A stretch of 64,000 nt of DNA from Pyrinomonadaceae bacterium. GTDB lineage: Bacteria > Acidobacteriota > Blastocatellia > Pyrinomonadales > Pyrinomonadaceae. Both the position numbers and the translations under genes were made by a program. Positions 7,668 to 54,416 of the stretch are shown here, in pieces (position 1 is the stretch's first letter; every line of letters begins with the position of its first letter). Under the pieces are notes generated by a model that was not told where the DNA came from, ran no database searches, and saw only the letters and a program-made list of their open reading frames with translations. The DNA lies in NCBI GenBank assembly GCA_036403375.1, contig DASWRC010000188.1:23248-87247 (forward strand), written 5' to 3'.

Positions 7668-9053
7668 TCATTTAATTACCGCATTGATCGGCGCCGGATA
7701 ACCTTTGCCTTGCAGCCCGGCGAGCTGGAACGCAACTTCCTTTTTGCCCTTGATATTTTTCGTTACCTTATCGCTGTTCGCGTTCGCATTTTTATTTTTG
7801 CTGCCCGCCGCGTTTGCATTCTGATTTACGTTTGCGTTTGCGTTCTGGTCGACCGGATTGCCCTGCGCGTCCGTACTCATCTGCTTTAATCCTTCGAGAA
7901 TCTTGTCGCGCTCTGCCGGCTGCAGGCTGTCGAGCGAAAAGCCGTAAGCGTCGAGCACGCGGCGCAGATTTTCTTCCGTGTTCGTGCCGCGCTCATAGAC
8001 GTCGCGGAAAATTTTCAAGGTGCCGTTTTCGACGACAATGGTTTCATAACGAATCTCGACCGGAATTGCCTTTTCGAGCTTGACGTTCTTGGTTTCCGTT
8101 TTATTTTTCCCGTAATTGTCGATGTCTTCCAGGGTTATCGGCGAACCGCTCAATTTCGCCAATTCGACCGTAAAATCCTTAATCTGCGAATCGGTCAGCC
8201 CGACGCAGCCGTGCGAGGCAAAGGTTCCGAGCCGCGCCGGTGATTTCCCGCCGTGAATCAGCGACGGCAAACCGATCGGAATCTTAATCGGTCCGAGCGG
8301 ATTTAGTTTGCTGCCCGCTTCGACTTTTTTTCCGGGCTGAACTTTTCCTTTAACCCAAGGTTCATCGGGCGGCGTCCACGACGGATTAAAAATAATCGAC
8401 TCGGCTTTGCGCATTCCGCTCGGCAGAGGGAATTCGGGATAACCGATGCCGACTTTGTAGGTCTTTACTAATTTGCCGTCCTGAAAAACGTCCATTCGGT
8501 ACGCGGGCGCGTTGACGACAACGCGCGTGTCGGTCGGAACCGCGCCGGGTTTTGCCGCGTTGGTCGAGGCTGTTTCCGCGCCGCCCTGCCAGCGCGCCCG
8601 AACGAGTTCAAACAATTGGTTCGCCTTTTCTTCGCCAATTATCCTGCGGATTTCATTGGCGGCGTTTTCCGCCGAAGCGCGCGTCGAACCGGCGCTTTCT
8701 TCGGTTTCGTCGTCGCTCAGGTTTTTCACGGCATCGCCGGAAACCTGTTTTAATTGATTGATTTGGTCGTCCGTTAATTGCAGCTTCGACTTTAATTCTC
8801 CGGCAAACTGCTCGTCCGAGAACATCGCATCGAGAACCGGCAAGGTCACCGGCATCGAAACCGCCGCCTGTTGGTTTTCGGGCGGTTTTGCCGTGTTCGT
8901 ATTAACGACGGTGTTCGTCGCCGAATTGGTACTGACGTTCGCATTCGTGGTCGGCTGGTCGGTTGGCGGAACGCACGCTGTAAAGTCGATTAAAACGCCG
9001 ATAAAAATTAAAACAAAAAATTTTCTGCCCTTTAGTTTCTCGAAAAAAGCCAT
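7668..9053 (-). CDS. L,D-transpeptidase (YkuD domain)
   Basis: Track ORF is 7668..9209. I trimmed it to MAFFEKLKGRKFFVLIFIGVLIDFTAC (ATG complement 9051-9053, AAGGAG 8 nt upstream). YkuD signature HGGKSPARLGTFASHGCVGL is present. The C-terminal tail is Asn/Ala-rich and low-complexity. Confidence 0.8.
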   Translation of the reverse strand: MAFFEKLKGRKFFVLIFIGVLIDFTACVPPTDQPTTNANVSTNSATNTVVNTNTAKPPENQQAAVSMPVTLPVLDAMFSDEQFAGELKSKLQLTDDQINQLKQVSGDAVKNLSDDETEESAGSTRASAENAANEIRRIIGEEKANQLFELVRARWQGGAETASTNAAKPGAVPTDTRVVVNAPAYRMDVFQDGKLVKTYKVGIGYPEFPLPSGMRKAESIIFNPSWTPPDEPWVKGKVQPGKKVEAGSKLNPLGPIKIPIGLPSLIHGGKSPARLGTFASHGCVGLTDSQIKDFTVELAKLSGSPITLEDIDNYGKNKTETKNVKLEKAIPVEIRYETIVVENGTLKIFRDVYERGTNTEENLRRVLDAYGFSLDSLQPAERDKILEGLKQMSTDAQGNPVDQNANANVNQNANAAGSKNKNANANSDKVTKNIKGKKEVAFQLAGLQGKGYPAPINAVIK

Positions 9054-9341
9054 ATCAATTCTCCTTTTGGGAAACGCGCTCTGTTTTCGTACACAAACAT
9101 TTCCTTGCCTGTGCCTCAGAGCAAAAGTCATTCCGCAGGTAAGAGATAGCTTTTTTTTAAGGTGAGTATTTGAGAAGAAATTTTTCAACGCCGGGATGCA
9201 AAGCGGCAAAGGCGCTAAAGCGGTTTTAATATTTACCGTTTGCTTTACTTGCCGGCTAATCGGTTTTCAATCCAGACACGTGACGAATAATTACGATATT
9301 TGCGCCTTTGCCGCCTTGGCGACTTCGCATTGAAATAACTC

Positions 9342-10094
9342 TTAACGGGCTTCGCGCGCGTTTTTCAGTAATGGATACGGGTTTGTATATTCGCCGTCCC
9401 ACCAGCGTTTCGGGTCTTTCACGAGCGCAATCGAAAAATGCAGGTGAAAATTTCCCGCGCCGGCGTTGCCGGTATCGCCGACATAACCGATAATTCTGCC
9501 CTGCGTGACGAATTGGTGTTCAGCCAGGTCTTCGGCGCGGCGCTGAAGATGGGCGTAATAATAAACGTATTTTTTATCGGTGCTGTATTGATAGATTGTA
9601 ATTCCGCCGGCTTTACTGTCGAAAAATTTCGCGATTTCGCCGTTGGCGACCGCGACGACCGGAGTTCCCTGCGGCGCCATAATATCAATCGCGTCGTGCA
9701 CCCGGTTGTCCGAGCGCGCGGCGGAAAAAGTATCCATCAACTGTGCCGGTTTGACGCCGACCACCGGAATCATCAAATCTTCGGAAACGCCCGGCAAAAC
9801 GCTTTGATTCACGGCTTGATTAGAGTTTGAAATCGGGGATTGATTGGAATTAACCACGGAATTTGCGGCGTTTTCCGAGAGGTTCGTGTTTTCCGGTTCG
9901 ATAGACGGAACCGGCATGACGGTCGGAACCGGCGTTTCTTCGGTCGGCGAAGTTACTCGTTCCGCGAAAGAATTGTCGTTCCAGACATACGGCGCGACAA
10001 ATTGCTTGAAAACAAAAAGCGCGGCAAGCACATGAACGGCGAGGAGGTAAATCACAATCAGAAACCTTTTTGCTCGCCCGCCCGCCTTGCTCAT
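9342..10094 (-). CDS. M23 (LytM-type) metallopeptidase
   Basis: 250 aa with an N-terminal TM segment. M23 motifs are present: HDAIDIMAPQGTPV ... GYVGDTGNAGAGNFHLHFSI. Confidence 0.85.
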   Translation of the reverse strand: MSKAGGRAKRFLIVIYLLAVHVLAALFVFKQFVAPYVWNDNSFAERVTSPTEETPVPTVMPVPSIEPENTNLSENAANSVVNSNQSPISNSNQAVNQSVLPGVSEDLMIPVVGVKPAQLMDTFSAARSDNRVHDAIDIMAPQGTPVVAVANGEIAKFFDSKAGGITIYQYSTDKKYVYYYAHLQRRAEDLAEHQFVTQGRIIGYVGDTGNAGAGNFHLHFSIALVKDPKRWWDGEYTNPYPLLKNAREAR

Positions 10095-31690: not shown

Positions 31691-32419
31691 GTGGCTGAAC
31701 AAAATCCCGAAAACCCGATTGCCGCGCAGACGGCGTTTACTGACCGTGACGAGCTTGTCGAACGCTATCGCCCGTACGTCTTCTCGATCGCCAAACAGGT
31801 TTCGCAGAGCTTTCCGGTGCGCATCGATTTTGAAGAGCTGGTCGGTTACGGGATGGTCGGACTGCTCGAAGCCGCCGAGCGCTACGACCCGCGCCGCAAG
31901 GTTTCGTTCGTGACGTTTTCATATTACCGCATCAAGGGCGCGATTTTCGACGGGCTGCGGCAGATGGGAATCCTGACGCGCACGCCGAACGAGGCGTGGG
32001 TGCGCCGCGAATCGGTGCTCAACGATTTGGTGCAGACGGCGTCCGCCGACGAGATGGAAACGCCGGCGGGTTCGGTCGACGACGAAATCGGCGCGGTCGA
32101 AAAGTTTGTCGATTCCCTGATTCCGGCGTATTTGCTTTCACTCAGCGAAGAAAACGCGCCCGACCTTGCCGACTCGCGCGAGCTGCCGAATGTTTCGGTC
32201 GAGTTCTCGGAAACAATTAAAATCGTCCGCGAAACCGTTCGCGAGCTGCCGGAAAAAGAACGCGAAATTATCGAATCGCTTTATTTCCGTCATCTTTCCA
32301 CCACCGAGCTTGCCAAAAAAATGGGCGTCAATAAATCGTGGGTTTCGCGTCTGCACTCAAAAGCCGTCAATCGCCTGCGCCAGCGGCTCGCGATGATTGG
32401 CGTGCTTTCAAATCAATAA
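31691..32419 (+). CDS. fliA: FliA/WhiG-type (sigma-28 family) RNA polymerase sigma factor
   Basis: 242 aa with a GTG start. Regions 2.1-2.4 are LVERYRPYVFSIAKQV ... FEELVGYGMVGLLEAAERYDPRRKVSFVTFSYYRIKGAIFDGLR. The region 4.2 HTH is LSTTELAKKMGVNKSWVSRLHSKAV. Confidence 0.8.
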   Translation: MAEQNPENPIAAQTAFTDRDELVERYRPYVFSIAKQVSQSFPVRIDFEELVGYGMVGLLEAAERYDPRRKVSFVTFSYYRIKGAIFDGLRQMGILTRTPNEAWVRRESVLNDLVQTASADEMETPAGSVDDEIGAVEKFVDSLIPAYLLSLSEENAPDLADSRELPNVSVEFSETIKIVRETVRELPEKEREIIESLYFRHLSTTELAKKMGVNKSWVSRLHSKAVNRLRQRLAMIGVLSNQ

Positions 32420-32550: not shown

Positions 32551-32578
32551 GGAAACTTTTCCGGGAACCTGCCGATAA
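32551..32578 (+). promoter_or_regulatory. Sigma-28 (FliA)-type promoter upstream of the 640-aa toxin-like gene
   Basis: GGAAACTTT-tccgggaacct-GCCGATAA. The -35-like GAAACTTT is at 32552-32559, followed by an 11-nt spacer and the -10-like GCCGATAA at 32571-32578. Enterobacterial class-3 consensus is TAAAGTTT-N11-GCCGATAA. Confidence 0.6.
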
Positions 32579-32678
32579 TTTCAACAACAGACGAGAAAAA
32601 ATCGTTGATTCAGTCCCGGGTCCCGGCGCAAAAATTCCGGTTATTAAACTGACTTGAGACCTGAGATTTAGAAGAATT

Positions 32679-34601
32679 ATGGCAAACCCCGTAAATAACA
32701 GTGGAATTAACGCGCAGGTCAGCGTTGGCGGGGCTTTGAAGGCGAATGTCAACGCCGGCGGCGCGGCGCGGCGGATTTCCGATACGCAAAGCAAAGACAT
32801 TTTTGAGAGCGTCAACGAAAATTACACGAAAAATCCGAATCATTCGCGCCCCGCAGAACAAGCCGGCGACGCCGACCAATCGCATCAAAATCAAGTAAAG
32901 GCAGGTAATAATTCCGCGCCGCCCGGTTTGGCAAAAGACGTTCAGGAGGAGCACGCTGCGCCGCCTGCTCCAAATAAACGCACGAAAAATGCGGACATCG
33001 GCGAAGGCGCGGCGCTTCTGAAAACGGCGGCGCGCGGCGAAAACGGCGACGTGAAAAGTTCGCGTCAGGGAATTTTAAACGGTCGCGGGCAGCAAAAATC
33101 GCAAGTTCCGCCGGAACCGGTCGAAACGCCGCCGATTGTGATTCTGCCGACCGACACGAAAGGCAATCAAACAACTATCGAGACGCCGCCGATTATCGCG
33201 CCGCCGAACGGCAACGGCAATCACGGCGGACCGCACAACAACGCGCCGGGTTCCACCGTGCGCAATCCGCGGATAAATAATCAGAACGCTTTCGGCACTC
33301 GGTTTTCGGTCGATTTAAGCTTGCGCGCGAACGGCAATCAGCCCACGGGCGTGATTCGCAATGTCGTCAACCAGATTTTGCGGCAGAACGACGTTTACCT
33401 CAGCCATAACACGCTAAATCGTCTGATAAGCAGCCGGACTTTCAATAATTCGACGCGCGGCTTTAATCATCCGGCGGTGAATTTGCCGCGCGAAGTCAAT
33501 CAACTATTCCAAACGGTGAGCCGCCGCGCGTTGTCTCTGCTCGATAATTCACGGCAGAATCACAAGCTGATTCACGAAATTTCAAAGGAAATCGGACGCG
33601 AATTACGGGAAAATGTTCAAGCCTCCAAAGCGGCAATTTTTAAAACGGCGGATTTAAGAGCGCTGCATTTCAAGCATCTGAATATCAATGAAAAAATGGA
33701 AGTCGCCGTCGATTTGCTGCCGCAGCATCTTCCTGAAAAAGCGCTTGCGCCCATTCAACACCACCAGCCGAGAGAAGTTCTCGACGCCTTTTTGCTCGCG
33801 CGCGGGCTGATTGTTCCGAGCGAAAAAGCGTCGGAAATCAGAAACCTCTTGGCGGCAAAATCGAGCGTTCTGCCGCCTGCAATTTCGATGACGGCGCTGC
33901 GCGATGTCGGTCAACTGGTGAAAACTCTGATTGCCGATACAGCGGCGGCAAAAACGACCGCGAATCTCGATTCGGCAGTGCAGAAATTCGTCAAAATCCT
34001 GCTCGCCAACAACGAGCTGGGCGTTTTGCTTGCCACTATCAGTCTCGTCGCGCAGACGACCAATGAGAGCGGTTTGGTGAGCCGCTCGCTCGCGCTGGCG
34101 CAGATTTATGAGCTTATCAACCAGCTGATTCCGGCGGGCGAGAAGGCTCTCGGCGAAGCCGCACCGGAAAAAAATATTCTGCAAAAGGAACGAAATATTT
34201 TTCACGCCGCCCCCGCGCTTTCAGCCGTCGATGACACGGATGAATCGAGGGCGCAGATAAATAAACTTCACGCCCAAGAGGCGACGGCGGGAAGCCTGCG
34301 CCAATTTCTGGAATTCAACCCCGCGCTGGTTTACGATAAATCGGCGTCCGCTTTTCACAATCCGGACGACGCGCGGCAGGCGCGCGATAATTTTATCAAT
34401 CTTCATCACGACGACCTCCTCGCCTGGCTCGAAAGCGGAAATCACCGGTTCGTCAAAGATTTCGATTTCGACAAACCGGTCGGCGTGGTCGTCGAGCGCG
34501 GCAGCGAGTCGGTTTTTACGGCAACGACGGCGCGTTTCGTGCTCGTTCGCGACGGCTCGGTGCAGGGCTGGCATTTTCTCAAATCATTTCTGGTAAAATA
34601 A
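32679..34601 (+). CDS. Putative T3SS-secreted polymorphic-toxin-like protein (disordered N-terminus, unassigned C-terminal domain)
   Basis: 640 aa with no Sec signal. The first ~210 aa are N/P/G/Q-rich and disordered. A sigma-28-type promoter lies upstream, and a CdiI-like immunity gene follows 18 bp downstream. The C-terminus ends ...ARFVLVRDGSVQGWHFLKSFLVK. Confidence 0.4.
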   Translation: MANPVNNSGINAQVSVGGALKANVNAGGAARRISDTQSKDIFESVNENYTKNPNHSRPAEQAGDADQSHQNQVKAGNNSAPPGLAKDVQEEHAAPPAPNKRTKNADIGEGAALLKTAARGENGDVKSSRQGILNGRGQQKSQVPPEPVETPPIVILPTDTKGNQTTIETPPIIAPPNGNGNHGGPHNNAPGSTVRNPRINNQNAFGTRFSVDLSLRANGNQPTGVIRNVVNQILRQNDVYLSHNTLNRLISSRTFNNSTRGFNHPAVNLPREVNQLFQTVSRRALSLLDNSRQNHKLIHEISKEIGRELRENVQASKAAIFKTADLRALHFKHLNINEKMEVAVDLLPQHLPEKALAPIQHHQPREVLDAFLLARGLIVPSEKASEIRNLLAAKSSVLPPAISMTALRDVGQLVKTLIADTAAAKTTANLDSAVQKFVKILLANNELGVLLATISLVAQTTNESGLVSRSLALAQIYELINQLIPAGEKALGEAAPEKNILQKERNIFHAAPALSAVDDTDESRAQINKLHAQEATAGSLRQFLEFNPALVYDKSASAFHNPDDARQARDNFINLHHDDLLAWLESGNHRFVKDFDFDKPVGVVVERGSESVFTATTARFVLVRDGSVQGWHFLKSFLVK

Positions 34602-34619
34602 ATCTCACCACAAAAAAAG

Positions 34620-34973
34620 GTGAGTAATTACCGGTTCAAATTTCCAGAGCTTTACCAATTCTTCGGCGGATATTTTTATCAGGGCTGGTCGGCGGATTAT
34701 CGCTGGGAATCGACAAAACCGGATTTCGCGGCGGTCGTCCGGCATTTCAAAGCCGTCAATCCGCTCCCGGCAGTGAACCGCGTCAGAATAGAATTAGCCG
34801 AATTGCTTGCTTTGTCGCTCGATGATACGGAATTAAACGCGGCGTTGAACGAACTGGGCAGCAATTTTTACGTGCCCGCCGAAAAATTAACAAATGTGCA
34901 ATGGCTCGCTAAAATCCTCGAAATACTCGACGAATCGCCGACCAAATCACGGGTTTTAAGAGAGCTCCGGTAA
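34620..34973 (+). CDS. CdiI-like (YFHQDW-type) toxin immunity protein
   Basis: 117 aa with a GTG start. FPELYQFFGGYFYQGW, then ...IELAELLALSLDDTELNAALNELGSNFYVPAEKLTNVQWLAKILEIL, matches my recollection of the contact-dependent-inhibition immunity family. That family has the pattern FFGGYFHQDW ... ELxxLL ... LG ... WL. Confidence 0.6.
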   Translation: MSNYRFKFPELYQFFGGYFYQGWSADYRWESTKPDFAAVVRHFKAVNPLPAVNRVRIELAELLALSLDDTELNAALNELGSNFYVPAEKLTNVQWLAKILEILDESPTKSRVLRELR

Positions 34974-35163: not shown

Positions 35164-35565
35164 TTAACCGGGCGAAATCAAATCAGCCGCGTCGAGCAGT
35201 GCCTGTGCCGTCTGGCTGTGCGGCGAATCCGGGCTGCCGCTGATGATTTCCCTTAACTCCGATTCGGCGCGGCTGCGCTGGCGACCGAAAAGCAAAGCTT
35301 CGGCATAATGAACGCGGGCGTAAAGGCTGTCCGGATTCTGTTCGAGCGCCTTTTCGCAAATCTCTTCCGCCGCGCTGAAATCGCCCATTTGCAGAAAAAC
35401 CGTGCCCAGCCCGACCTGCGGAACGTCCGATTCGGGCATAAACTCCATCACACCGCGAAAAATCGCTTCCGCTTGTTCGAATTTGGCGGCTTCGCGCAGG
35501 ATGTAACCCGTTTCAAGCATGACGCGCAATTCTTCGCTGCTGACCGGAATCTCGGCTATCGTCAT
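35164..35565 (-). CDS. TPR-type (class II, LcrH/SycD-like) type III secretion chaperone
   Basis: 133 aa with three TPR units. It lies directly downstream of a putative secreted needle-family protein in the same transcription unit. Confidence 0.55.
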   Translation of the reverse strand: MTIAEIPVSSEELRVMLETGYILREAAKFEQAEAIFRGVMEFMPESDVPQVGLGTVFLQMGDFSAAEEICEKALEQNPDSLYARVHYAEALLFGRQRSRAESELREIISGSPDSPHSQTAQALLDAADLISPG

Positions 35566-35665: not shown

Positions 35666-36130
35666 TTACGACTTGATATTGTTGACCGCCGACATTTCAG
35701 AGTCGTGGCGTGTTTTCAAAAGATTTGAAACGGTCGTAAATTCCTGCGCCTGCATCCCGACGCGATGCTGAACGCTGATCAGCTGCATCGAATTCTGCTG
35801 CTGCTGGTTAAGCATCTGGTTTTGCTGGCGCTGCTGCAAAGAACTGGAAATCTGGTTATAACGCTGCATTTCCTCAAACTGGCGCTGCTGTTCCATCAAG
35901 GCGGTGTACGAGCCGGAGGACGCGCCGCCGCTGCCGCCGATGACGTTGCCGAGAATTCCGCCCAAGCCCGGCGCGACGAAATTCAGTGCCGTGCTCGCGA
36001 CGCCGCCGAGAACCTTGAGGAATTTATTGGGTTCCTTTGTTCTTTGCTGGACATCTATTTCCGGAAAAACGGTCGCCACCGGCGGAAGGGTTTCGGTTTT
36101 CACCGGCGTAATCATCGTGTCGTCTGCCAT
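35666..36130 (-). CDS. SctF-family paralogue with Gly-rich N-terminal extension (filament/translocator candidate)
   Basis: 154 aa. The C-terminal 20 aa (SNLLKTRHDSEMSAVNNIKS) share 10/20 ungapped identities with the C-terminus of the 71-aa SctF-like protein at 60357. A Gly-rich hydrophobic block (VLGGVASTALNFVAPGLGGILGNVIGGSGG) and a Q-rich helix are present. AAGGAG RBS and a sigma-28-type promoter lie upstream. Confidence 0.45.
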   Translation of the reverse strand: MADDTMITPVKTETLPPVATVFPEIDVQQRTKEPNKFLKVLGGVASTALNFVAPGLGGILGNVIGGSGGASSGSYTALMEQQRQFEEMQRYNQISSSLQQRQQNQMLNQQQQNSMQLISVQHRVGMQAQEFTTVSNLLKTRHDSEMSAVNNIKS

Positions 36131-46783: not shown

Positions 46784-47743
46784 TCAAAAACGTCCGGCGC
46801 GTGCGCCGTCAAATGCGGCGCGTTCGGGCAGATAAAATTCTTCAAACCCGTGTGATGTGAGCGGACGCCCGGCGCGGAAATAATGCGTCACCGCGCCCCG
46901 ACCTTCGTGCGCAAACGGATTTAACCATGAGCGAAGCCCTAACGCCTGCGGCACGCCGTCGTTGCGGTTGACGTAATGAACATACTGCGGTCCGTCCGTG
47001 TAGCGCCGCGCCGCGCCGCCGAAGGTTTCGACCTTGATGCCGCTCATTAAATTTTCAGCTTCGCGGCGCGACATTCCGTCTTCGAGCATCAGGCGGTTTT
47101 TCACGTCCTGCAGCGCGCGGCTGGTGATGAGCGCGCCCTGCGAATGCGCGAGCAGATGAACGCCGCGCCCCGCGCGCAGCTCGTTGTAAACCGTGTCGGC
47201 GAGCGTATCGACCGCCGGATTTCTGCCGATGTCGAGCTTATCGCCCAAAGATTGCAGAATATCGGTTCCGAAACCTTCGGTCGCGTTGTGAATTCCGACA
47301 ACGCGCGAGCCGGAATTATCGGCAAGCGCCTGCAAACTGTTCGCCTGTCCGGCAACATTCGTGCGAATTCCGTTGACGTAAATTAATGTTTCGTTATTGC
47401 GTGTGCCGCCCGCCGGGATTACTGCGGGAATTTCGCTCAAAACGGTCGCGGGCGCAAAAGTCTGACCGCCGGCACCGAGGAAATAACCGTCGAATCGTTT
47501 GTCCGGCGCGGCTACTTCGCGTTGTAATCGCAGGCTTAACGGGTGCAGCGCGGTCGAAAGACCGGTGCGCGAAGCAAACGCCTCGCCGAGGGTCAGCGCG
47601 CTCGCCTCGGCAAAATTACAGGCTGCTCCGGCTTCATGCAAAACCTCATTCTGAACCGTTTCTCTTAACGAATTGCCGGCTTCGAGCGGCTTTAGAAAAC
47701 TTCTGCCGATTTCCGCCGCGATGCCTCTCAAACTCAAACCCAT
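46784..47743 (-). CDS. Alpha/beta-hydrolase (lipase/esterase-like, GxSxG) putative effector
   Basis: Track ORF starts at a TTG (47761). The ATG at complement 47741-47743 has GGAGGA 10 nt upstream. The nucleophile-elbow motif is VHLLAHSQGALI. No signal peptide. A sigma-28-type promoter lies upstream. Confidence 0.6.
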   Translation of the reverse strand: MGLSLRGIAAEIGRSFLKPLEAGNSLRETVQNEVLHEAGAACNFAEASALTLGEAFASRTGLSTALHPLSLRLQREVAAPDKRFDGYFLGAGGQTFAPATVLSEIPAVIPAGGTRNNETLIYVNGIRTNVAGQANSLQALADNSGSRVVGIHNATEGFGTDILQSLGDKLDIGRNPAVDTLADTVYNELRAGRGVHLLAHSQGALITSRALQDVKNRLMLEDGMSRREAENLMSGIKVETFGGAARRYTDGPQYVHYVNRNDGVPQALGLRSWLNPFAHEGRGAVTHYFRAGRPLTSHGFEEFYLPERAAFDGARAGRF

Positions 47744-47784
47744 CCGATCGCGTTCCTCCAAAAATTTATCTTCCTTGAAATAAG

Positions 47785-47812
47785 TTTTCGGCAGAGGTTT
47801 CTAAAAGTTTCC
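47785..47812 (-). promoter_or_regulatory. Sigma-28-type promoter upstream of the hydrolase/chaperone unit
   Basis: The reverse strand reads GGAAACTTT-tagaaacctct-GCCGAAAA with an 11-nt spacer, about 42 nt upstream of the ATG at 47743. Confidence 0.6.
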
Positions 47813-48620: not shown

Positions 48621-48648
48621 GGAAACTTTCTCCGAACGCAAACGATAA
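48621..48648 (+). promoter_or_regulatory. Sigma-28-type promoter upstream of the peptidoglycan hydrolase gene
   Basis: GGAAACTTT-ctccgaacgca-AACGATAA with an 11-nt spacer, about 42 nt upstream of the start. Confidence 0.55.
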
Positions 48649-48689
48649 CCTTGCCAGAAGCAGCAATTTAAAATCAAGCGAGGGAAAAC

Positions 48690-50582
48690 GTGATGCAGGT
48701 TGGCGCAAAGAGTTTTGTCGAGGAAGTTTTAGAGATTTTCGGTTTCGGAAGCGAGGAATCGGCGGCAAACGGCAACACGCTGACTTCAAACAAATTTTTG
48801 TCGTCGAACGATTCTGAAGCCACCGCCGTCGAAAGAAATCTGGTTGACCGCAGCCCGATTCTGCGCGCCGGGCTGAATAACGCTTTTGCCGCCGCCGAAG
48901 CCAGCCGCTTTGATTACCAACGGATTCAGGGCGTTCGCGGAAACCGTTTCGTAACGGCGGAATTTTTGAGCGAAGTCGAAAATACGGCGCAGCGAATCGG
49001 CACGCGTCCCGAATATCTGCTGGCGGTGATGAGCTTTGAAACCGGCGGCACGTTTGACCCGGCAAAACGCAACGGTATCGGCGCGACCGGCTTGATTCAA
49101 TTTCTGGTTCCGACGGCGGAAGGTTTGGGAACTTCGACCGCCGCGCTGGCACGCATGTCGTCGGTCGAACAGCTCCGCTACGTCGAAAAATATTTCGACC
49201 AGCCGAACTTTCGCGGGCGGCTCGGTTCTCTGGAAGGATTGTACACGGCGGTTTTGAGCGGCAGAGCGCGTCAGAATAGCGACGATGTTTTGTTCCGTCA
49301 GGGGACGAGCGCCTACCGGCAAAATCCGCTCGATTGGAATAACGACGGGCAAATCACGGCTGGCGAAGCGATTACACCGGTAGCGGCGCGAATGTTCGGC
49401 GGCGTTCGCGCCGTTCAGCAAAGACTTCTCGACGCCGGTTTCGTTCCGGAAAACCAGCAGCGCCGCTTTGCCGACGGCGACTGGGGCGCAGACACGTCAG
49501 CCGCGCTCCGGCGTTTTCAGGAAGCAAACGGCTTGCCCGCGACCGGCTTGCTCGACGACCGGACGGGACGCCGGCTTTTCGGATTGCGTGCCGTGCCCGC
49601 GACGAATCCGACCAATCCGTCAACGCCGGGAGCGAGCGATTTACAGCGCGGAAGCGAGGGCGCGGCGGTCGTGCGGATTCAGGATAATTTAATCAAACTC
49701 GGCTTTCTGACCGAAGCCCAAAAAAGCACCGGCGCGGGAGTTTTCGGACCGCAGACGGAAGCCGCTCTGAAAGCGTTTCAGCGCCGCGCACATCTCGAAG
49801 CCAACGGTAGATTCGACGCCCCGACCGAGCGCGGGATGGGCGAAATCGAGCTCGGTCTCGGGCGCACGACGAGCGTTAAAAACCAGAATTTAACGAAAGG
49901 AATTCAAGACCGGCTGGTCGAGCTCGGGTACTTGACGCGCGCCGCGGTCGACACCGGCTACGGCGCGTTCGGACCGCAAACCGAAAGCGCAATCATACAA
50001 TTTCAGGCGCGCAGCGGCTTACCGCAAACCGGACGCGCCGCCGATGTGACTTTTCGAATATTGTTTTCCGAAAGCGCGCGCCGCTCAAATTCAGGCGTCA
50101 CGGGCGCCGCTTATTCGGTCGCCGCCGGCGGCAGGCATTACACGGTCGAGCCGGGAATCCTGATGACCGACTCGCTTCGCCCGCAGCTGCAAAATTTAGC
50201 CGACCGTTATCACGAGCAAACCGGAAATAATCTCCACATTACGAGCGGTTATCGTCCGCCCGCACGACAGGCTTCGGCGATGTACGATTTGATTCATTCG
50301 CGCGGCGAGCGATACGTGCGCGACCTTTATACGAATAAAACGGCGGTTGACCAAATCCTGGCGGCTTACCGCAACAGCGGCGGCAGCCGAGCGGAAGCGA
50401 TTGCGGCGATGACGCGAACGATAAACAATCAAATCGGGCACGGCACGTATATCTCCGACCATCTGCGAAGCGAGGCTCTGGACATCAGCACGAGCGCGAA
50501 TTTCAGAGTTTTGAGCCGGCTTGTTCGCGAGCTCGGCGGCTCGGTTTTGAACGAGGGAAATCATTTTCACGTCGAACTTTAA
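48690..50582 (+). CDS. Multidomain peptidoglycan hydrolase: lysozyme/lytic-transglycosylase-like + 3x PG_binding_1 + M15 (LAS) peptidase
   Basis: 630 aa (GTG 48690 or ATG 48693). The N-domain has LAVMSFETGGTFDP...GATGLIQFLVPTAEGLG. Three PG-binding repeats are present: GDWGADTSAALRRFQEANGLPATG, GVFGPQTEAALKAFQRRAHLEANG, GAFGPQTESAIIQFQARSGLPQTG. The C-domain has HITSGYRP, HLRSEALD (H-x6-D) and GNHFHVE. No Sec signal. A sigma-28-type promoter lies upstream. Confidence 0.75.
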   Translation: MMQVGAKSFVEEVLEIFGFGSEESAANGNTLTSNKFLSSNDSEATAVERNLVDRSPILRAGLNNAFAAAEASRFDYQRIQGVRGNRFVTAEFLSEVENTAQRIGTRPEYLLAVMSFETGGTFDPAKRNGIGATGLIQFLVPTAEGLGTSTAALARMSSVEQLRYVEKYFDQPNFRGRLGSLEGLYTAVLSGRARQNSDDVLFRQGTSAYRQNPLDWNNDGQITAGEAITPVAARMFGGVRAVQQRLLDAGFVPENQQRRFADGDWGADTSAALRRFQEANGLPATGLLDDRTGRRLFGLRAVPATNPTNPSTPGASDLQRGSEGAAVVRIQDNLIKLGFLTEAQKSTGAGVFGPQTEAALKAFQRRAHLEANGRFDAPTERGMGEIELGLGRTTSVKNQNLTKGIQDRLVELGYLTRAAVDTGYGAFGPQTESAIIQFQARSGLPQTGRAADVTFRILFSESARRSNSGVTGAAYSVAAGGRHYTVEPGILMTDSLRPQLQNLADRYHEQTGNNLHITSGYRPPARQASAMYDLIHSRGERYVRDLYTNKTAVDQILAAYRNSGGSRAEAIAAMTRTINNQIGHGTYISDHLRSEALDISTSANFRVLSRLVRELGGSVLNEGNHFHVEL

Positions 50583-50589
50583 AAAAAAC

Positions 50590-50617
50590 GAAAGTTTGTA
50601 CAAACAAAACCCGAAAT
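50590..50617 (+). promoter_or_regulatory. Weaker sigma-28-like promoter candidate upstream of sctU
   Basis: GAAAGTTT-N12-CCCGAAAT. The spacer is one nt longer and the -10 element is degenerate. Confidence 0.3.
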
Positions 50618-50715
50618 AGTAAAATAAATCAATCGTAAACAGGCGGAAAAGTTATTCCTATTTTTGCGATTGATATTTTCTTTTTACGGAAGGTCAAAAC
50701 GCGAGAAGGTTTTAA

Positions 50716-52471: not shown

Positions 52472-53902
52472 ATGGCAGCTCCGAATCATCTTACCGAAAC
52501 CGAAAACGCGGTGCGCCCGCCCGATGCGCCGCGCGACCCGTTTGCCGTCGATTTTTTCGGCGGGGCGACCCCGATTGCCGATGACGATGAGCTGTTTGCG
52601 GAAAAGGAGCCGAAAACCCGCCGGCGCATAAAGCCGCAAAAAAAATCCGATTGGCACAGAAATCTGCCCCGAATCACGAACCGCGAAGCCGGGTTTTCCA
52701 ATCTTTTATCCAATTTACCGGAAAATTTAACGCAAAATTCCGCCGGAATGATTGCGGAAACGCTTGCGCGCTACGCTTTTCGCGAAGCCGGACAGGTCGA
52801 ATGTTCGATTATCTCGGCAACGGAAACAAATCTATCCGACGCGGTAAACAGCTTGGCTGAAACCGCGCAGGTTTTTCTGACGGTTGAATGTCAGCCGGAC
52901 AGTGCCCGGGCAATCGTCGGGCTAAACATTGAATTCGCGCGCCTTTTGATTGATTCGATGCTCGGCGGAAAAGGCGCGGAATCCCGAAACCGGCGCGCGC
53001 TTTCGCCGGTTGAAACGACGATTATCGAATTTCTCGCCGCGAATGTTTTAGGCGAAATCAACCGGTTTTTAGGCGCGCCGATGCTTTTCCTGCAGGACGT
53101 GAAAAATGAACCGGCAGCCGCCTTCGACGCGTTCGAGCGCGGTGCGGAGATTGTTTTTAATCTCGAATTCGGGGATTTCAAAGGCATTGTCACGCTTGTC
53201 GCGCCGGTGAAATTCGTCGGCGGGCTCGATAAATCGCAAAATCCGAAGCTGTTTAAAAAATCGGACAGAAAAAGTCTGCGCGATTTTGAAAAATTTGCGC
53301 CCGCGTTCGATTTACGCCTGCAAATCGGCACGACTTTTCTCGACGCGGACAGTCTTTTATACCTTGAACCGGATGATATAGTTTTGATTGAGCAATCGCT
53401 CGCCGGGGCGGCAGGCGCGAATTTCGGTGCTGATTTACAGGTTTTTGTCGGGCGCGGAAGAAATTTTCGACTTCGGGGAAATACCCAAAGCAATGATTTC
53501 GGCGGCGGTTTGAATTTCAGAATAGAGGAAATTTTGAGCGAGGACGCGCGGCGGCGATTTACGCCCGCAAAATTTAAAATGGACGAAATAGAAAACGATT
53601 CAGCGGAAGAAACGAATCTCGAAGCGACGGGCGCGCCGGCAGCGGAAGATGAAATGCCGGACGAACAGATTTCGCCGTCGCTGGAAAATGTACAAGTCGC
53701 GCTGCGCGTTGAAATTGCGGGCAACAAAATCTCTCTGCGCGAGCTGCAGAATCTTCGTGCCGGACAGATTATCGCGCTCGGTTGCAGCCCGGCAGACCCG
53801 GTGCGTCTCGTCACGGATAACAACGAAGAACCGGTCGCGACGGGCGAACTGGTCGAAATCGAAGGACAGCTCGGCGTGCGTTTGACGAAAGTTTTTATTT
53901 GA
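52472..53902 (+). CDS. sctQ: Type III secretion sorting-platform protein SctQ (FliM-like N-part + FliN/SpoA C-domain)
   Basis: 476 aa. The FliM-like block is LLIDSMLGGKGAESRNRRALSPVETTIIEFLAANVLGEIN. The C-terminal SpoA domain is VQVALRVEIAGNKISLRELQNLRAGQIIALG...ATGELVEIEGQLGVRLTKV. Confidence 0.85.
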   Translation: MAAPNHLTETENAVRPPDAPRDPFAVDFFGGATPIADDDELFAEKEPKTRRRIKPQKKSDWHRNLPRITNREAGFSNLLSNLPENLTQNSAGMIAETLARYAFREAGQVECSIISATETNLSDAVNSLAETAQVFLTVECQPDSARAIVGLNIEFARLLIDSMLGGKGAESRNRRALSPVETTIIEFLAANVLGEINRFLGAPMLFLQDVKNEPAAAFDAFERGAEIVFNLEFGDFKGIVTLVAPVKFVGGLDKSQNPKLFKKSDRKSLRDFEKFAPAFDLRLQIGTTFLDADSLLYLEPDDIVLIEQSLAGAAGANFGADLQVFVGRGRNFRLRGNTQSNDFGGGLNFRIEEILSEDARRRFTPAKFKMDEIENDSAEETNLEATGAPAAEDEMPDEQISPSLENVQVALRVEIAGNKISLRELQNLRAGQIIALGCSPADPVRLVTDNNEEPVATGELVEIEGQLGVRLTKVFI

Positions 53903-54026
53903 GCCGTTCGGGTTTTTAAAGAATTATTGCCCGCGCGCAGAGACGAAGGAAACGAAAAAAAAGAAATATTTTATTTCTTTGAATTTACTTTTCCGTGTTT
54001 CGTGCGCTTCGTGGGCAAAATTAAAT

Positions 54027-54416
54027 ATGGGCAATTCTTTGAGTTTTTTGTGGATGCTGGTGCAGACGATTTTTGCGCTGGCGCTCGTCTGCGGGCTGGC
54101 ATACCTGATTTTTCGCGTCATTCTGCCGCGTCTCGCCGTCAATTACGGCTCGAACAACATGGTGCGCGTCGTTGACCGCATCGGTTTGGAAGCGCGAAAA
54201 AGTCTTTATGTAATTGAAGTTGCCGGAAAATGGATGCTCGTCGCCTCGTCGGAAAGCGGCGTGCAGTTTATCGCCGAGCTCGATGCCGAAAGCGCTCGCC
54301 TCGCGGAAGAAGAAATTGTCAAAAACCGTCAATTGCCAGCCAACTCGGCGTTCGGAAAATCTTTTGCCGACAAGCTTAACGAGGTTATCAATCGCGGCAA
54401 ACAAGGAGGGAAGTAA
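54027..54416 (+). CDS. FliO-like single-pass membrane protein
   Basis: Track ORF is 53979..54416. The ATG at 54027 gives MGNSLSFLWMLVQTIFALALVCGLAYLIFRVILPRL, then VRVVDRIGLEARKSLYVIEVAGKWMLVASSESGV, which is FliO-like. Its stop overlaps the sctR start (TAATG). Confidence 0.5.
   Translation: MGNSLSFLWMLVQTIFALALVCGLAYLIFRVILPRLAVNYGSNNMVRVVDRIGLEARKSLYVIEVAGKWMLVASSESGVQFIAELDAESARLAEEEIVKNRQLPANSAFGKSFADKLNEVINRGKQGGK

Follow-up and report, generated by a model that had tools for sequence, protein, structure and literature searches.

Why does a type III secretion system (T3SS) island encode a large peptidoglycan hydrolase with two catalytic heads and no signal peptide, and whose wall would such an enzyme cut? 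We addressed this question for a gene within a 64,000-nucleotide stretch of a Pyrinomonadaceae contig (DASWRC010000188.1; hereafter the window), which encodes a lytic transglycosylase (LT) head, three peptidoglycan-binding repeats, and a zinc-peptidase tail. An earlier note, made from the letters alone, had read it as an antibacterial effector rather than an assembly factor. The hydrolase is very probably a peptidoglycan-cutting substrate of the island T3SS, for which the evidence is strong but circumstantial and consists of its membership in a sigma-28-type regulon, an N-terminal extension that tracks T3SS linkage, the lack of cysteine, and the recurrence of its head in T3SS clusters of two phyla. 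With about even confidence, we propose that the enzyme acts on the sacculus of its producer, at the place where the machine stands, which would clear the way for the growing T3SS filament.

Domain architecture and export features

The open reading frame (ORF) at 48690..50582 (+) was confirmed in the window, with GTG 48690 immediately preceding ATG 48693. GTG was dropped as the start in favor of the ATG based on Shine-Dalgarno spacing and conservation among orthologues; GAGGGA lies 7 nucleotides (nt) before the ATG, and an alignment of the upstream regions of 12 orthologous loci shows that the ATG is unchanged and that a purine-rich block ahead of it is kept. The product is therefore 629 amino acids (aa) long. 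A search found 458 homologues, with Pyrinomonadaceae orthologues at 58 to 79% identity.

The order of domains that had been read from motifs, an LT head followed by three PG_binding_1 repeats and a LAS tail, is correct and is borne out by Pfam, a match to the solved structure 9udh, structural models, and invariant residues. The LT and LAS assignments draw on structural matches and motifs, not on curated Pfam thresholds. A check by profile search, which the earlier note had proposed, succeeded for the PG_binding_1 repeats (PF01471; E 7e-37, 125.8 bits versus a cut-off of 23, in three stretches) but not for the two heads, as the match of Pfam SLT (PF01464) to the LT head reached 12.8 bits, under the cut-off of 21.3, and that of Peptidase_M15_3 to the tail reached 17.8 bits, under the cut-off of 23.2. 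Several relatives of the head score 17 to 28 bits with SLT. Searching Pfam at E values up to 0.1 recovered neither the Rod-binding nor the Glucosaminidase domain of FlgJ in the hydrolase.

The head matches PDB entry 9udh, a solved 164-aa "bacteriophage lytic transglycosidase," by both phmmer (E 7e-26) and Foldseek (E 2e-8, 40% identity, TM 0.81), as well as 9k2v, a 1058-aa "internal protein" of the cyanophage A4 pre-ejectosome (E 7e-11). A literature search on the 9udh entry turned up no relevant paper. In a whole-protein AlphaFold model built on 46 homologues (pLDDT 82), the PG_binding_1 repeats are helical with a pLDDT of ~90, and the head has a lysozyme-like fold in which the putative catalytic Glu ends the first core helix in an E-S/T motif. 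This residue, E116 in MSFE[TS], and the ATGLIQF motif are invariant across the 46 homologues, and so are S518-G-Y-R521, H590-x6-D597, E621, and H624-F-H626 in the tail. The invariant set corresponds to a predicted catalytic Glu for the LT head and a predicted H-x6-D / E-x-x-H-x-H set for the zinc peptidase. When aa 470 to 629 were modeled separately (pLDDT 94), the top Foldseek matches were LAS enzymes only (VanY, VanXY, LdcB, Shh-N, ChiX, and MepA), with probabilities of 0.9 to 1.0 but weak E values (at least 5e-3) and TM scores of 0.35 to 0.5. The tail model has a ~60-residue helical insert between SGYR and H590, and a PDB sequence search with the C-terminal domain gave no match.

The claim that the hydrolase lacks a signal peptide also held. 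Its first 58 residues are predicted to be disordered (pLDDT <50), a conserved ERNLVDR..IL helix occupies aa 46 to 70 of the N-terminal extension, and the highest 9-residue Kyte-Doolittle mean within the first 70 aa is 1.44, compared to 2.7 to 3.4 for proteins with signal peptides in the same window (SctJ, M23, VIT-VWA, and DUF6683 proteins). Across 81 family members, neither a Sec signal nor the twin-arginine (Tat) motif is present. We rejected a signal peptide hidden by a mis-called start, given that short paralogues have an in-frame stop a few codons ahead of their Met and that all N-termini are polar. A T3SS substrate is expected to have no Sec or Tat signal and a disordered, polar N-terminus, and this is what the hydrolase has. 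It also contains no cysteine, which is true of ~40 relatives except those with a CHAP head.

A sigma-28-type regulon of leaderless proteins

The hydrolase gene lies behind a sigma-28 (FliA)-type promoter, GAAACTTT-N11-AACGATAA, that can also be written as GGAAACTTT-N13-CGATAA at 48621-48648, the end of which lies 45 nt before the ATG. The site conforms to TAAA(G/C)TTT-N11-GCCGATAA, stands at a suitable distance from the start, and is conserved; across the 12 aligned upstream regions, GGGAAAC..T and CGATAA are the sole invariant blocks besides the start codon, the spacer is otherwise unconserved, and the -10 element is exactly GCCGATAA in several orthologues. Escherichia coli FliA promoters have the same layout, such as those of motAB (TAAACTTT-N11-GCCGATAT) and fliD (TAAACTTT-N11-ACCGATAA) (PMC4183435). 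With up to 2 mismatches allowed, the window contains 8 occurrences of the motif versus 0.53 expected, a 15-fold excess that was reached in 0 of 100 shuffles, and all eight sites are intergenic, correctly oriented, and within the island. The promoter called in the earlier note is thus well founded, both in its conservation and in its repeated use.

The presumed reader of the motif is a sigma factor encoded in the island, for which FliA_WhiG (TIGR02479) is the best match (E 2e-37) at 129 bits, under the 189.6-bit cut-off. A FlgM-like secreted anti-sigma factor might also exist, with orf134 and orf216 as candidates.

The apparatus operons have promoters of a different kind. The sctU operon has its own sigma-70-like promoter directly after the hydrolase stop codon, a block that is kept in an alignment of 11 orthologous hydrolase-sctU spacers, and no sigma-28-like motif was found ahead of sctD, which places the hydrolase in a promoter class apart from the apparatus genes. 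The eight-promoter regulon takes in only leaderless, nearly cysteine-free proteins, with 3 Cys in 3867 residues where the rest of the window would predict 18 (P 2e-5), and the apparatus operons use other promoters.

Covariation of T3SS linkage, N-terminal extension, and promoter

We scanned one genome per species and compared the resulting 80 loci with the island proteins of the window by tblastn; the relatives are annotated as Pyrinomonadaceae, Acidobacteriota. In 13 loci with 58 to 79% identity (group A), the order is always orf134, hydrolase, and sctU, between the sctN and sctU operons, as was borne out by the gene-call listing. In four more distant loci (group B, L028 to L031, 45 to 47% identity) and in L032, the hydrolase lies within rearranged clusters. 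Altogether, the gene is T3SS-cluster-encoded and conserved there in 18 Pyrinomonadaceae loci and in at least 15 Xanthomonadales loci.

A set of short copies (group D; L017, L019 to L024, L026, L036, and L080) is found in housekeeping contexts, for example, with FolC or UvrA, and without T3SS neighbors. These proteins start with MAAKFDY..., four residues ahead of the LT domain, and have no signal peptide, zero cysteines, and all of the catalytic residues (an example is L019 9998-11638). Both forms can occur together, as the metagenome-assembled genome CBDCJY01 carries cluster copy L014 and short copy L019.

An N-terminal extension of at least 69 aa is present in 18/18 cluster-linked copies and absent from 10 of the 12 unlinked copies with usable flanks (Fisher p 2e-6). 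The promoter follows the same pattern. The sigma-28 motif stands 40 to 52 nt upstream of the start with 0 to 1 mismatches in 13/13 group A loci, and group B has a variant, GTAACTTT-N11-GCCGATAA, at 64 to 66 nt upstream. The two unlinked copies that keep the extension (L018 and L025) also keep the motif with 2 mismatches at 40 and 43 nt, for which the chance is ~3e-5 per locus, while the best motif matches in the short copies have 5 to 7 mismatches at scattered positions. The promoter therefore tracks the N-terminal extension and not the location. In a rough neighbor-joining tree of the LT domain, made with no bootstrap, the short copies form one derived clade nested among extension-bearing forms, with group B near the base. 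This clade of short paralogues appears to be derived and to have lost the N-terminal extension, the sigma-28 motif, and T3SS linkage.

The same head in Xanthomonadales clusters and phages

The LT head also recurs, at ~60% identity, beside sctN/sctV homologues in Luteimonas, Lysobacter, Dokdonella, Vulcaniibacterium, and related genomes, where it follows the sctN homologue at a distance of ~1.4 kb. Nonflagellar T3SS (NF-T3SS) clusters that end in a leaderless LT-LysM(x1-3)-M23 protein were seen in free-living Lysobacteraceae (L049 901-11590, L050 to L059, L061, L065, L069, L078, and L081). The Luteimonas cluster, L049, encodes SctV, SctD (Yop-YscD_cpl), SctI (T3SS_basalb_I), SctJ, SctL, SctN, SctO, and an HpaP-like gene, after which comes a leaderless protein (MVGPVSNGGGGNTVGD...) with the LT head, 3 LysM repeats, and Peptidase_M23; the 10 kb downstream yielded no homologues of SctR, SctT, or SctU. 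In other relatives, the last domain is M23 (L032, L033, L035, L037, and L069), CHAP (L063), or Peptidase_M74 (L073), and the binding modules are PG_binding_1 and/or LysM repeats. As judged by domain content, the constant features of the family are a leaderless polar N-terminus, the LT head, murein-binding repeats, and a predicted second head, for which four unrelated murein-peptidase folds occur.

In IMG/VR, we found 247 relatives of the LT domain. Among 66 complete viral ORFs, the domain is mostly C-terminal in proteins of 460 to 1000 aa, and a minority of the proteins are ~204 aa. The best PHROGs for the head are 4928 (unknown function, 834 aa) and 196 ("baseplate hub"). We therefore assign the head to a putative virion-associated lysin type. 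Virion lysins cross a narrow channel and then cut the wall, so that passage through a type III channel would fit this type, although this is not proof.

The T3SS island and its neighbors

The island spans ~27.7 to 60.6 kb of the window (Table 1). It encodes SctD with an FHA domain, SctV, SctJ, a gene in the position of SctK, SctL, SctN, SctU, a FliM/FliN-like SctQ, FliO, SctR, SctT, YscO/FliJ, and a FliK-like protein; profile searches of the 64-kb window found no rod, hook, filament, or secretin families. The ATPase matches injectisome ATPases at 443 and 410 bits versus 391 bits for FliI. A flagellar cluster was rejected given the lack of rod, hook, and filament Pfam families, the presence of SctD-FHA, YscO, and T3SS_ATPase_C, and an ATPase slightly nearer to those of injectisomes. 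The 476-aa SctQ homologue matches FliM and FliN_C, and a FliO homologue is also present (52472-54416, +). Flagellum-like SctQ and FliO in an otherwise injectisome-like cluster suggest an early-branching or intermediate T3SS type. A 2012 survey of NF-T3SS reported none in Acidobacteria (PMC3459982).

Two proteins of 154 and 71 aa are candidate needle or filament subunits. They are paralogous (BLASTP E 3e-7) and have a common C-terminal SNxxKxxHDxxMxxxNNxKS, which we take to be needle-like; no family match backs that, and PDB sequence searches with the 154-aa protein and the 192-aa protein of orf192 gave no match. The island further encodes a Gly-rich 152-aa protein and three small tetratricopeptide repeat (TPR) chaperone-like proteins. 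Together with the two candidate subunits, these are encoded at 35164-35565 (-), 35666-36130 (-), 58679-59155 (-), 59870-60340 (+), and 59396-60572 (+). The presence of both needle/filament-like paralogues and of the three TPR genes does not support a needle-less system like the T3SS* of Myxococcus.

The second wall enzyme of the island, SLT378, had been described as a conventional small SLT enzyme at 56756..57892, which does not fit what is encoded there. It is in fact a 378-aa leaderless protein, it starts with MGDNLKIQNPIVPL..., and it has a ~170-aa N-terminal region and a C-terminal SLT domain, a layout that appears FlgJ-like. Its gene forms an operon with orf192 behind the same sigma-28-like motif. 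The orf192 product is a coiled-coil protein with what we presume to be a rod/SctI-like C-terminus, for which there is no family match. The gene for a TPR protein, TPR158, is just upstream of the motif of this operon, and the gene order of SLT378, orf192, and TPR158 is kept in orthologous and rearranged clusters.

Also behind a sigma-28-like site is the gene for a leaderless protein of 640 aa that ends in a CdiA-CT RNase A-like domain (PF18431). A gene for a CdiI_2 immunity protein (PF18593, E 4.5e-13) comes directly after it, and the pair with its motif spans 32551-34973 (+). The whole RNase protein is as conserved as the hydrolase across the same Pyrinomonadaceae genomes, and we rejected polymorphic-toxin behavior given this conservation across species. 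According to a 2012 survey, classical polymorphic toxins do not use T3SS (PMC3482391).

Closer to the hydrolase, orf325 encodes a leaderless protein that resembles alpha/beta-hydrolases, with AHSQG as its nucleophile elbow and a weak Abhydrolase_6 match, and it is followed by orf138, which encodes a small, acidic, leaderless protein resembling class I T3SS chaperones; both genes (46347-47812, -) are conserved beside the hydrolase locus. The orf134 product is leaderless and has no family match, and the gene stands apart from the hydrolase in L029 to L031, and for these reasons we rejected it as an immunity protein or a dedicated chaperone. A PADLOC scan of the island ORFs gave no match. About 18 kb upstream of the island are genes for two further wall enzymes (7668-10094, -), one of 513 aa with a YkuD L,D-transpeptidase domain and one of 250 aa that belongs to Peptidase_M23 and has an N-terminal hydrophobic stretch. 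Neither has an evident tie to the island, and between these genes and the island are those for a 2497-aa TPR protein and a VIT-VWA protein.

Table 1. Coordinates of the hydrolase gene, its predicted parts, and related features in the window
Feature	Position	Strand	Details
Two-headed peptidoglycan hydrolase gene, 629 aa	48693..50582	+	Stop codon included
Shine-Dalgarno GAGGGA for ATG 48693	48680..48685	+	Read from sequence; 7 nt before ATG
Sigma-28 (FliA)-type promoter of hydrolase	48621..48648	+	-35 GAAACTTT 48622-48629, 11-nt spacer, -10 AACGATAA 48641-48648
N-terminal extension, aa 1-72	48693..48908	+	Disordered, polar, without hydrophobic core; putative T3SS export signal
LT head, aa 73-238	48909..49406	+	Phage virion-associated lysin type; putative catalytic E116
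PG_binding_1 repeat 1, aa 239-300	49407..49592	+	Pfam; match to 1lbu 241-305
PG_binding_1 repeat 2, aa 317-385	49641..49847	+	Pfam; SleB N-domain 317-385
PG_binding_1 repeat 3, aa 398-460	49884..50072	+	Pfam and model
LAS-fold (VanY/M15-like) Zn-peptidase tail, aa 473-629	50109..50579	+	SGYR 518-521, H590, D597, E621, H624, H626
Sigma-70-like promoter of sctU operon, TGTACA-17-TAAAAT	50597..50625	+	Promoter scan; directly after hydrolase stop
FliA/WhiG-family sigma factor gene	31691..32419	+	TIGR02479; Sigma70_r2 and r4; presumed reader of motif
Sigma-28-like site, perfect motif	32551-32578	+	Ahead of RNase protein gene
Sigma-28-like site	36241	-	Ahead of 154-aa needle-like gene
Sigma-28-like site	46256	-	Ahead of orf742
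Sigma-28-like site	47812	-	Ahead of orf325-orf138
Sigma-28-like site	47945	+	Ahead of orf134
Sigma-28-like site	58623-58650	-	Ahead of orf192-SLT378 operon
Sigma-28-like site	59274	+	Ahead of 59396-60572 operon ending with 71-aa needle-like gene
Candidate needle/filament subunit, 154 aa	35666-36130	-	
Candidate needle/filament subunit, 71 aa	60357-60572	+	
Second wall enzyme SLT378, 378 aa, leaderless	56756..57892	-	SLT domain aa 186-304; operon with orf192

Whose wall is cut

Our weighing of the possible targets began from a strong prior for assembly. To our knowledge, every characterized wall hydrolase of a T3SS or flagellar cluster serves assembly, including the leaderless self-exported ones (FlgJ, HrpH, and Hpa2). 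From there, we arrived at roughly even confidence in a role on the producer's own wall, distinctly less in an antibacterial lysin, and little in a protein that is not exported by the T3SS at all. In our preferred reading, the FliA-like sigma factor of the island would turn on the hydrolase along with the needle-like and rod-like subunits, and the disordered 70-aa N-terminus would lead the unfolded protein through the export gate. Once outside the cytoplasm, the hydrolase would refold and dock on murein via its three PG-binding modules, where the LT head would cut glycan strands and the LAS head would cut peptide stems or cross-links, removing a patch of wall. Two activities would thereby be fused in one self-exported protein.

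Several observations argue for this role. The alternative second heads of the family (Peptidase_M23, CHAP, and Peptidase_M74) come from the same families as the cross-link endopeptidases that E. coli itself uses. The hydrolase has a promoter class in common with the needle-like and rod-like genes, and no immunity gene flanks it, as the downstream gene is sctU and orf134, on the upstream side, encodes a leaderless protein and is found apart from the hydrolase in L029 to L031. Lastly, both enzyme classes found in the hydrolase are known to serve as wall-breachers for secretion apparatuses, namely, EtgA, IagB, IpgF, HrpH, and Hpa2 (PMC2912269) and TagX (PMC5061870).

Other observations weigh against a role on the producer's own wall. 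SLT378, being leaderless, FlgJ-like, and beside a rod-like gene, could alone cover assembly of the apparatus. Three PG-binding modules, two heads, and head swapping look more like a lysin than a tethered assembly factor, and the nearest relatives of the LT head are phage virion lysins, which attack a target wall. The CdiA-CT RNase and CdiI_2 immunity genes in the same regulon hint at bacterial targets. As this RNase toxin is equally conserved, conservation within the cluster cannot separate structural parts from cargo, and the short paralogues show that the enzyme has been kept without T3SS linkage.

The hydrolase could instead be antibacterial cargo, secreted or injected by the T3SS so that the wall of other bacteria is degraded, which we regard as possible but doubtful. 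It could attack exposed Gram-positive murein as an exolysin, with immunity then made unnecessary by the outer membrane of the producer, or it could act as a penetration or lysis factor together with the island RNase toxin, analogous to the T3SS*-dependent prey lysis of Myxococcus. The first three of the points just listed count in favor of cargo: SLT378 can account for assembly, the head belongs with phage virion-associated lysins, and second heads are swapped among LAS, M23, CHAP, and M74 and binding modules between PG_binding_1 and LysM. Further support comes from the company of the hydrolase, as the leaderless CdiA-CT RNase A-like protein and its adjoining CdiI_2 gene lie behind the same promoter motif and the island also holds the leaderless GxSxG (AHSQG) hydrolase orf325 with its small acidic chaperone-like partner. 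Copies that moved away from the cluster nevertheless kept the promoter (L018 and L025), and the hosts are free-living soil and water lineages. In Myxococcus xanthus, the T3SS* is needed for prey lysis with local peptidoglycan degradation, through effectors that are unknown (PMC12428579, PMC10433427, and PMC12075869).

Against cargo, a literature search for a wall-lytic T3SS effector gave T6SS (type VI secretion system) and T4SS (type IV secretion system) work only. The known wall-targeting effectors of these two systems have a flanking periplasmic immunity gene, and the hydrolase has none. If the protein is released outside the cell, the outer membrane would shield the producer's wall, and the missing gene would count for less. 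The position of the hydrolase is fixed and core-like in every cluster examined, across two phyla. Delivery past the producer's own periplasm is hypothetical, given that no secretin or outer-membrane conduit was found in the 64-kb window, and the RNase immunity protein is cytoplasmic and would be needed for self-protection whatever the target.

The interpretation in the earlier note therefore stands in part. That the hydrolase is a T3SS substrate is well supported, if circumstantially; the further step to cargo took SLT378 for a conventional enzyme, which was wrong, and leaderless exported hydrolases that serve assembly are known. Antibacterial cargo is a possible reading, though not the better-supported one. 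Equally tentative is the broader proposal that the wall lysin, the CdiA-CT RNase/CdiI pair, and the lipase-like hydrolase make up a conserved sigma-28-controlled antibacterial T3SS payload in free-living Acidobacteriota, and the LT-LysM-M23 lysins of Xanthomonadales T3SS clusters might, within an antibacterial role and at no greater likelihood, be analogous to the lysin of such a payload.

Improbable in our estimate is that the hydrolase is not a T3SS substrate but a phage lysin or autolysin that has been domesticated, whose place in the island is incidental and which reaches the wall by another route (lysis, vesicles, or some exporter not known), because although its modular build resembles phage endolysins and short paralogues with intact catalytic residues occupy housekeeping contexts without extension, motif, or T3SS genes, those short forms nest as a derived clade among extension-bearing forms in the rough tree, linkage, N-terminal extension, and promoter covary tightly, the independent linkage of the head to Xanthomonadales T3SS clusters would be hard to explain, and no holin or phage genes adjoin the hydrolase.

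Comparison with known systems

Of the known wall enzymes, FlgJ, the flagellar rod cap and muramidase of Salmonella, is similar in being a leaderless, type III-exported, two-part protein that cuts the producer's peptidoglycan for an axial structure, the export and target of the hydrolase being those proposed here. FlgJ differs in having a structured rod-binding N-terminal domain and one glucosaminidase head, with no PG-binding repeats and no peptidase; the hydrolase has neither FlgJ domain, and its N-terminus is disordered. In the enteric flagellar hierarchy, FlgJ is also not a sigma-28-class gene. HrpH is T3SS secreted without a Sec signal, and Hpa2 is reported to be T3SS secreted. Together with EtgA, IpgF, IagB, and HpaH, these enzymes resemble the hydrolase in having a lysozyme-like LT domain with a catalytic Glu that is encoded in a T3SS cluster (PMC2912269). 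They are, in contrast, single-headed proteins of ~150 to 350 aa with a Pfam SLT domain, and EtgA has a Sec signal peptide, whereas the hydrolase head is under the SLT cut-off, groups with phage virion lysins, and is joined to three PG_binding_1 repeats and a zinc peptidase.

TagX, a LAS L,D-endopeptidase of the T6SS, is comparable to the predicted LAS-type tail of the hydrolase; it is a phage-derived peptidase of the LAS/VanY superfamily encoded in a secretion-system cluster, and it is needed for passage of the T6SS through the producer's wall (PMC5061870). Unlike the hydrolase, it is membrane anchored, single-headed, and not secreted, and it serves a different secretion system. Phage virion lysins (9udh, 9k2v, and PHROG 4928/196) include the closest relatives of the LT head (40% identity) and are leaderless; they traverse a narrow channel before cutting murein. 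In these lysins, however, the domain usually ends a virion protein of 460 to 1000 aa, whereas here it heads a chromosomal, T3SS-linked protein with a sigma-28-type promoter. Finally, the effector-immunity pairs of T6SS and T4SS (Tae/Tai, Tge/Tgi, and X-Tfe/X-Tfi) also comprise leaderless, secretion-linked wall hydrolases with modular heads; the hydrolase differs from them in its secretion system, in its fixed core-like position, and in that no cognate immunity gene targeted to the periplasm adjoins its locus.

Implications

Secretion machines have to get through the wall of their producer, and the enzymes so far known to be dedicated to this are small and have a single activity, whereas this family fuses glycan-cutting and peptide-cutting heads with murein anchors. 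The combination of two activities and anchors in a protein that is apparently self-exported, with an interchangeable peptidase head and within a sigma-28-type regulon of a nonflagellar Acidobacteriota T3SS, is unusual. The covariation of extension, promoter, and T3SS linkage, set beside a derived clade that lacks all three, offers a natural experiment in the conversion of a leaderless phage-type lysin into a T3SS substrate. If other bacteria were the target, the hydrolase would be the first wall-lytic effector of a T3SS and would add antibacterial effectors of this kind to the known biology of the T3SS. The family would then also be a candidate class for the effectors that act in T3SS*-dependent prey lysis by myxobacteria.

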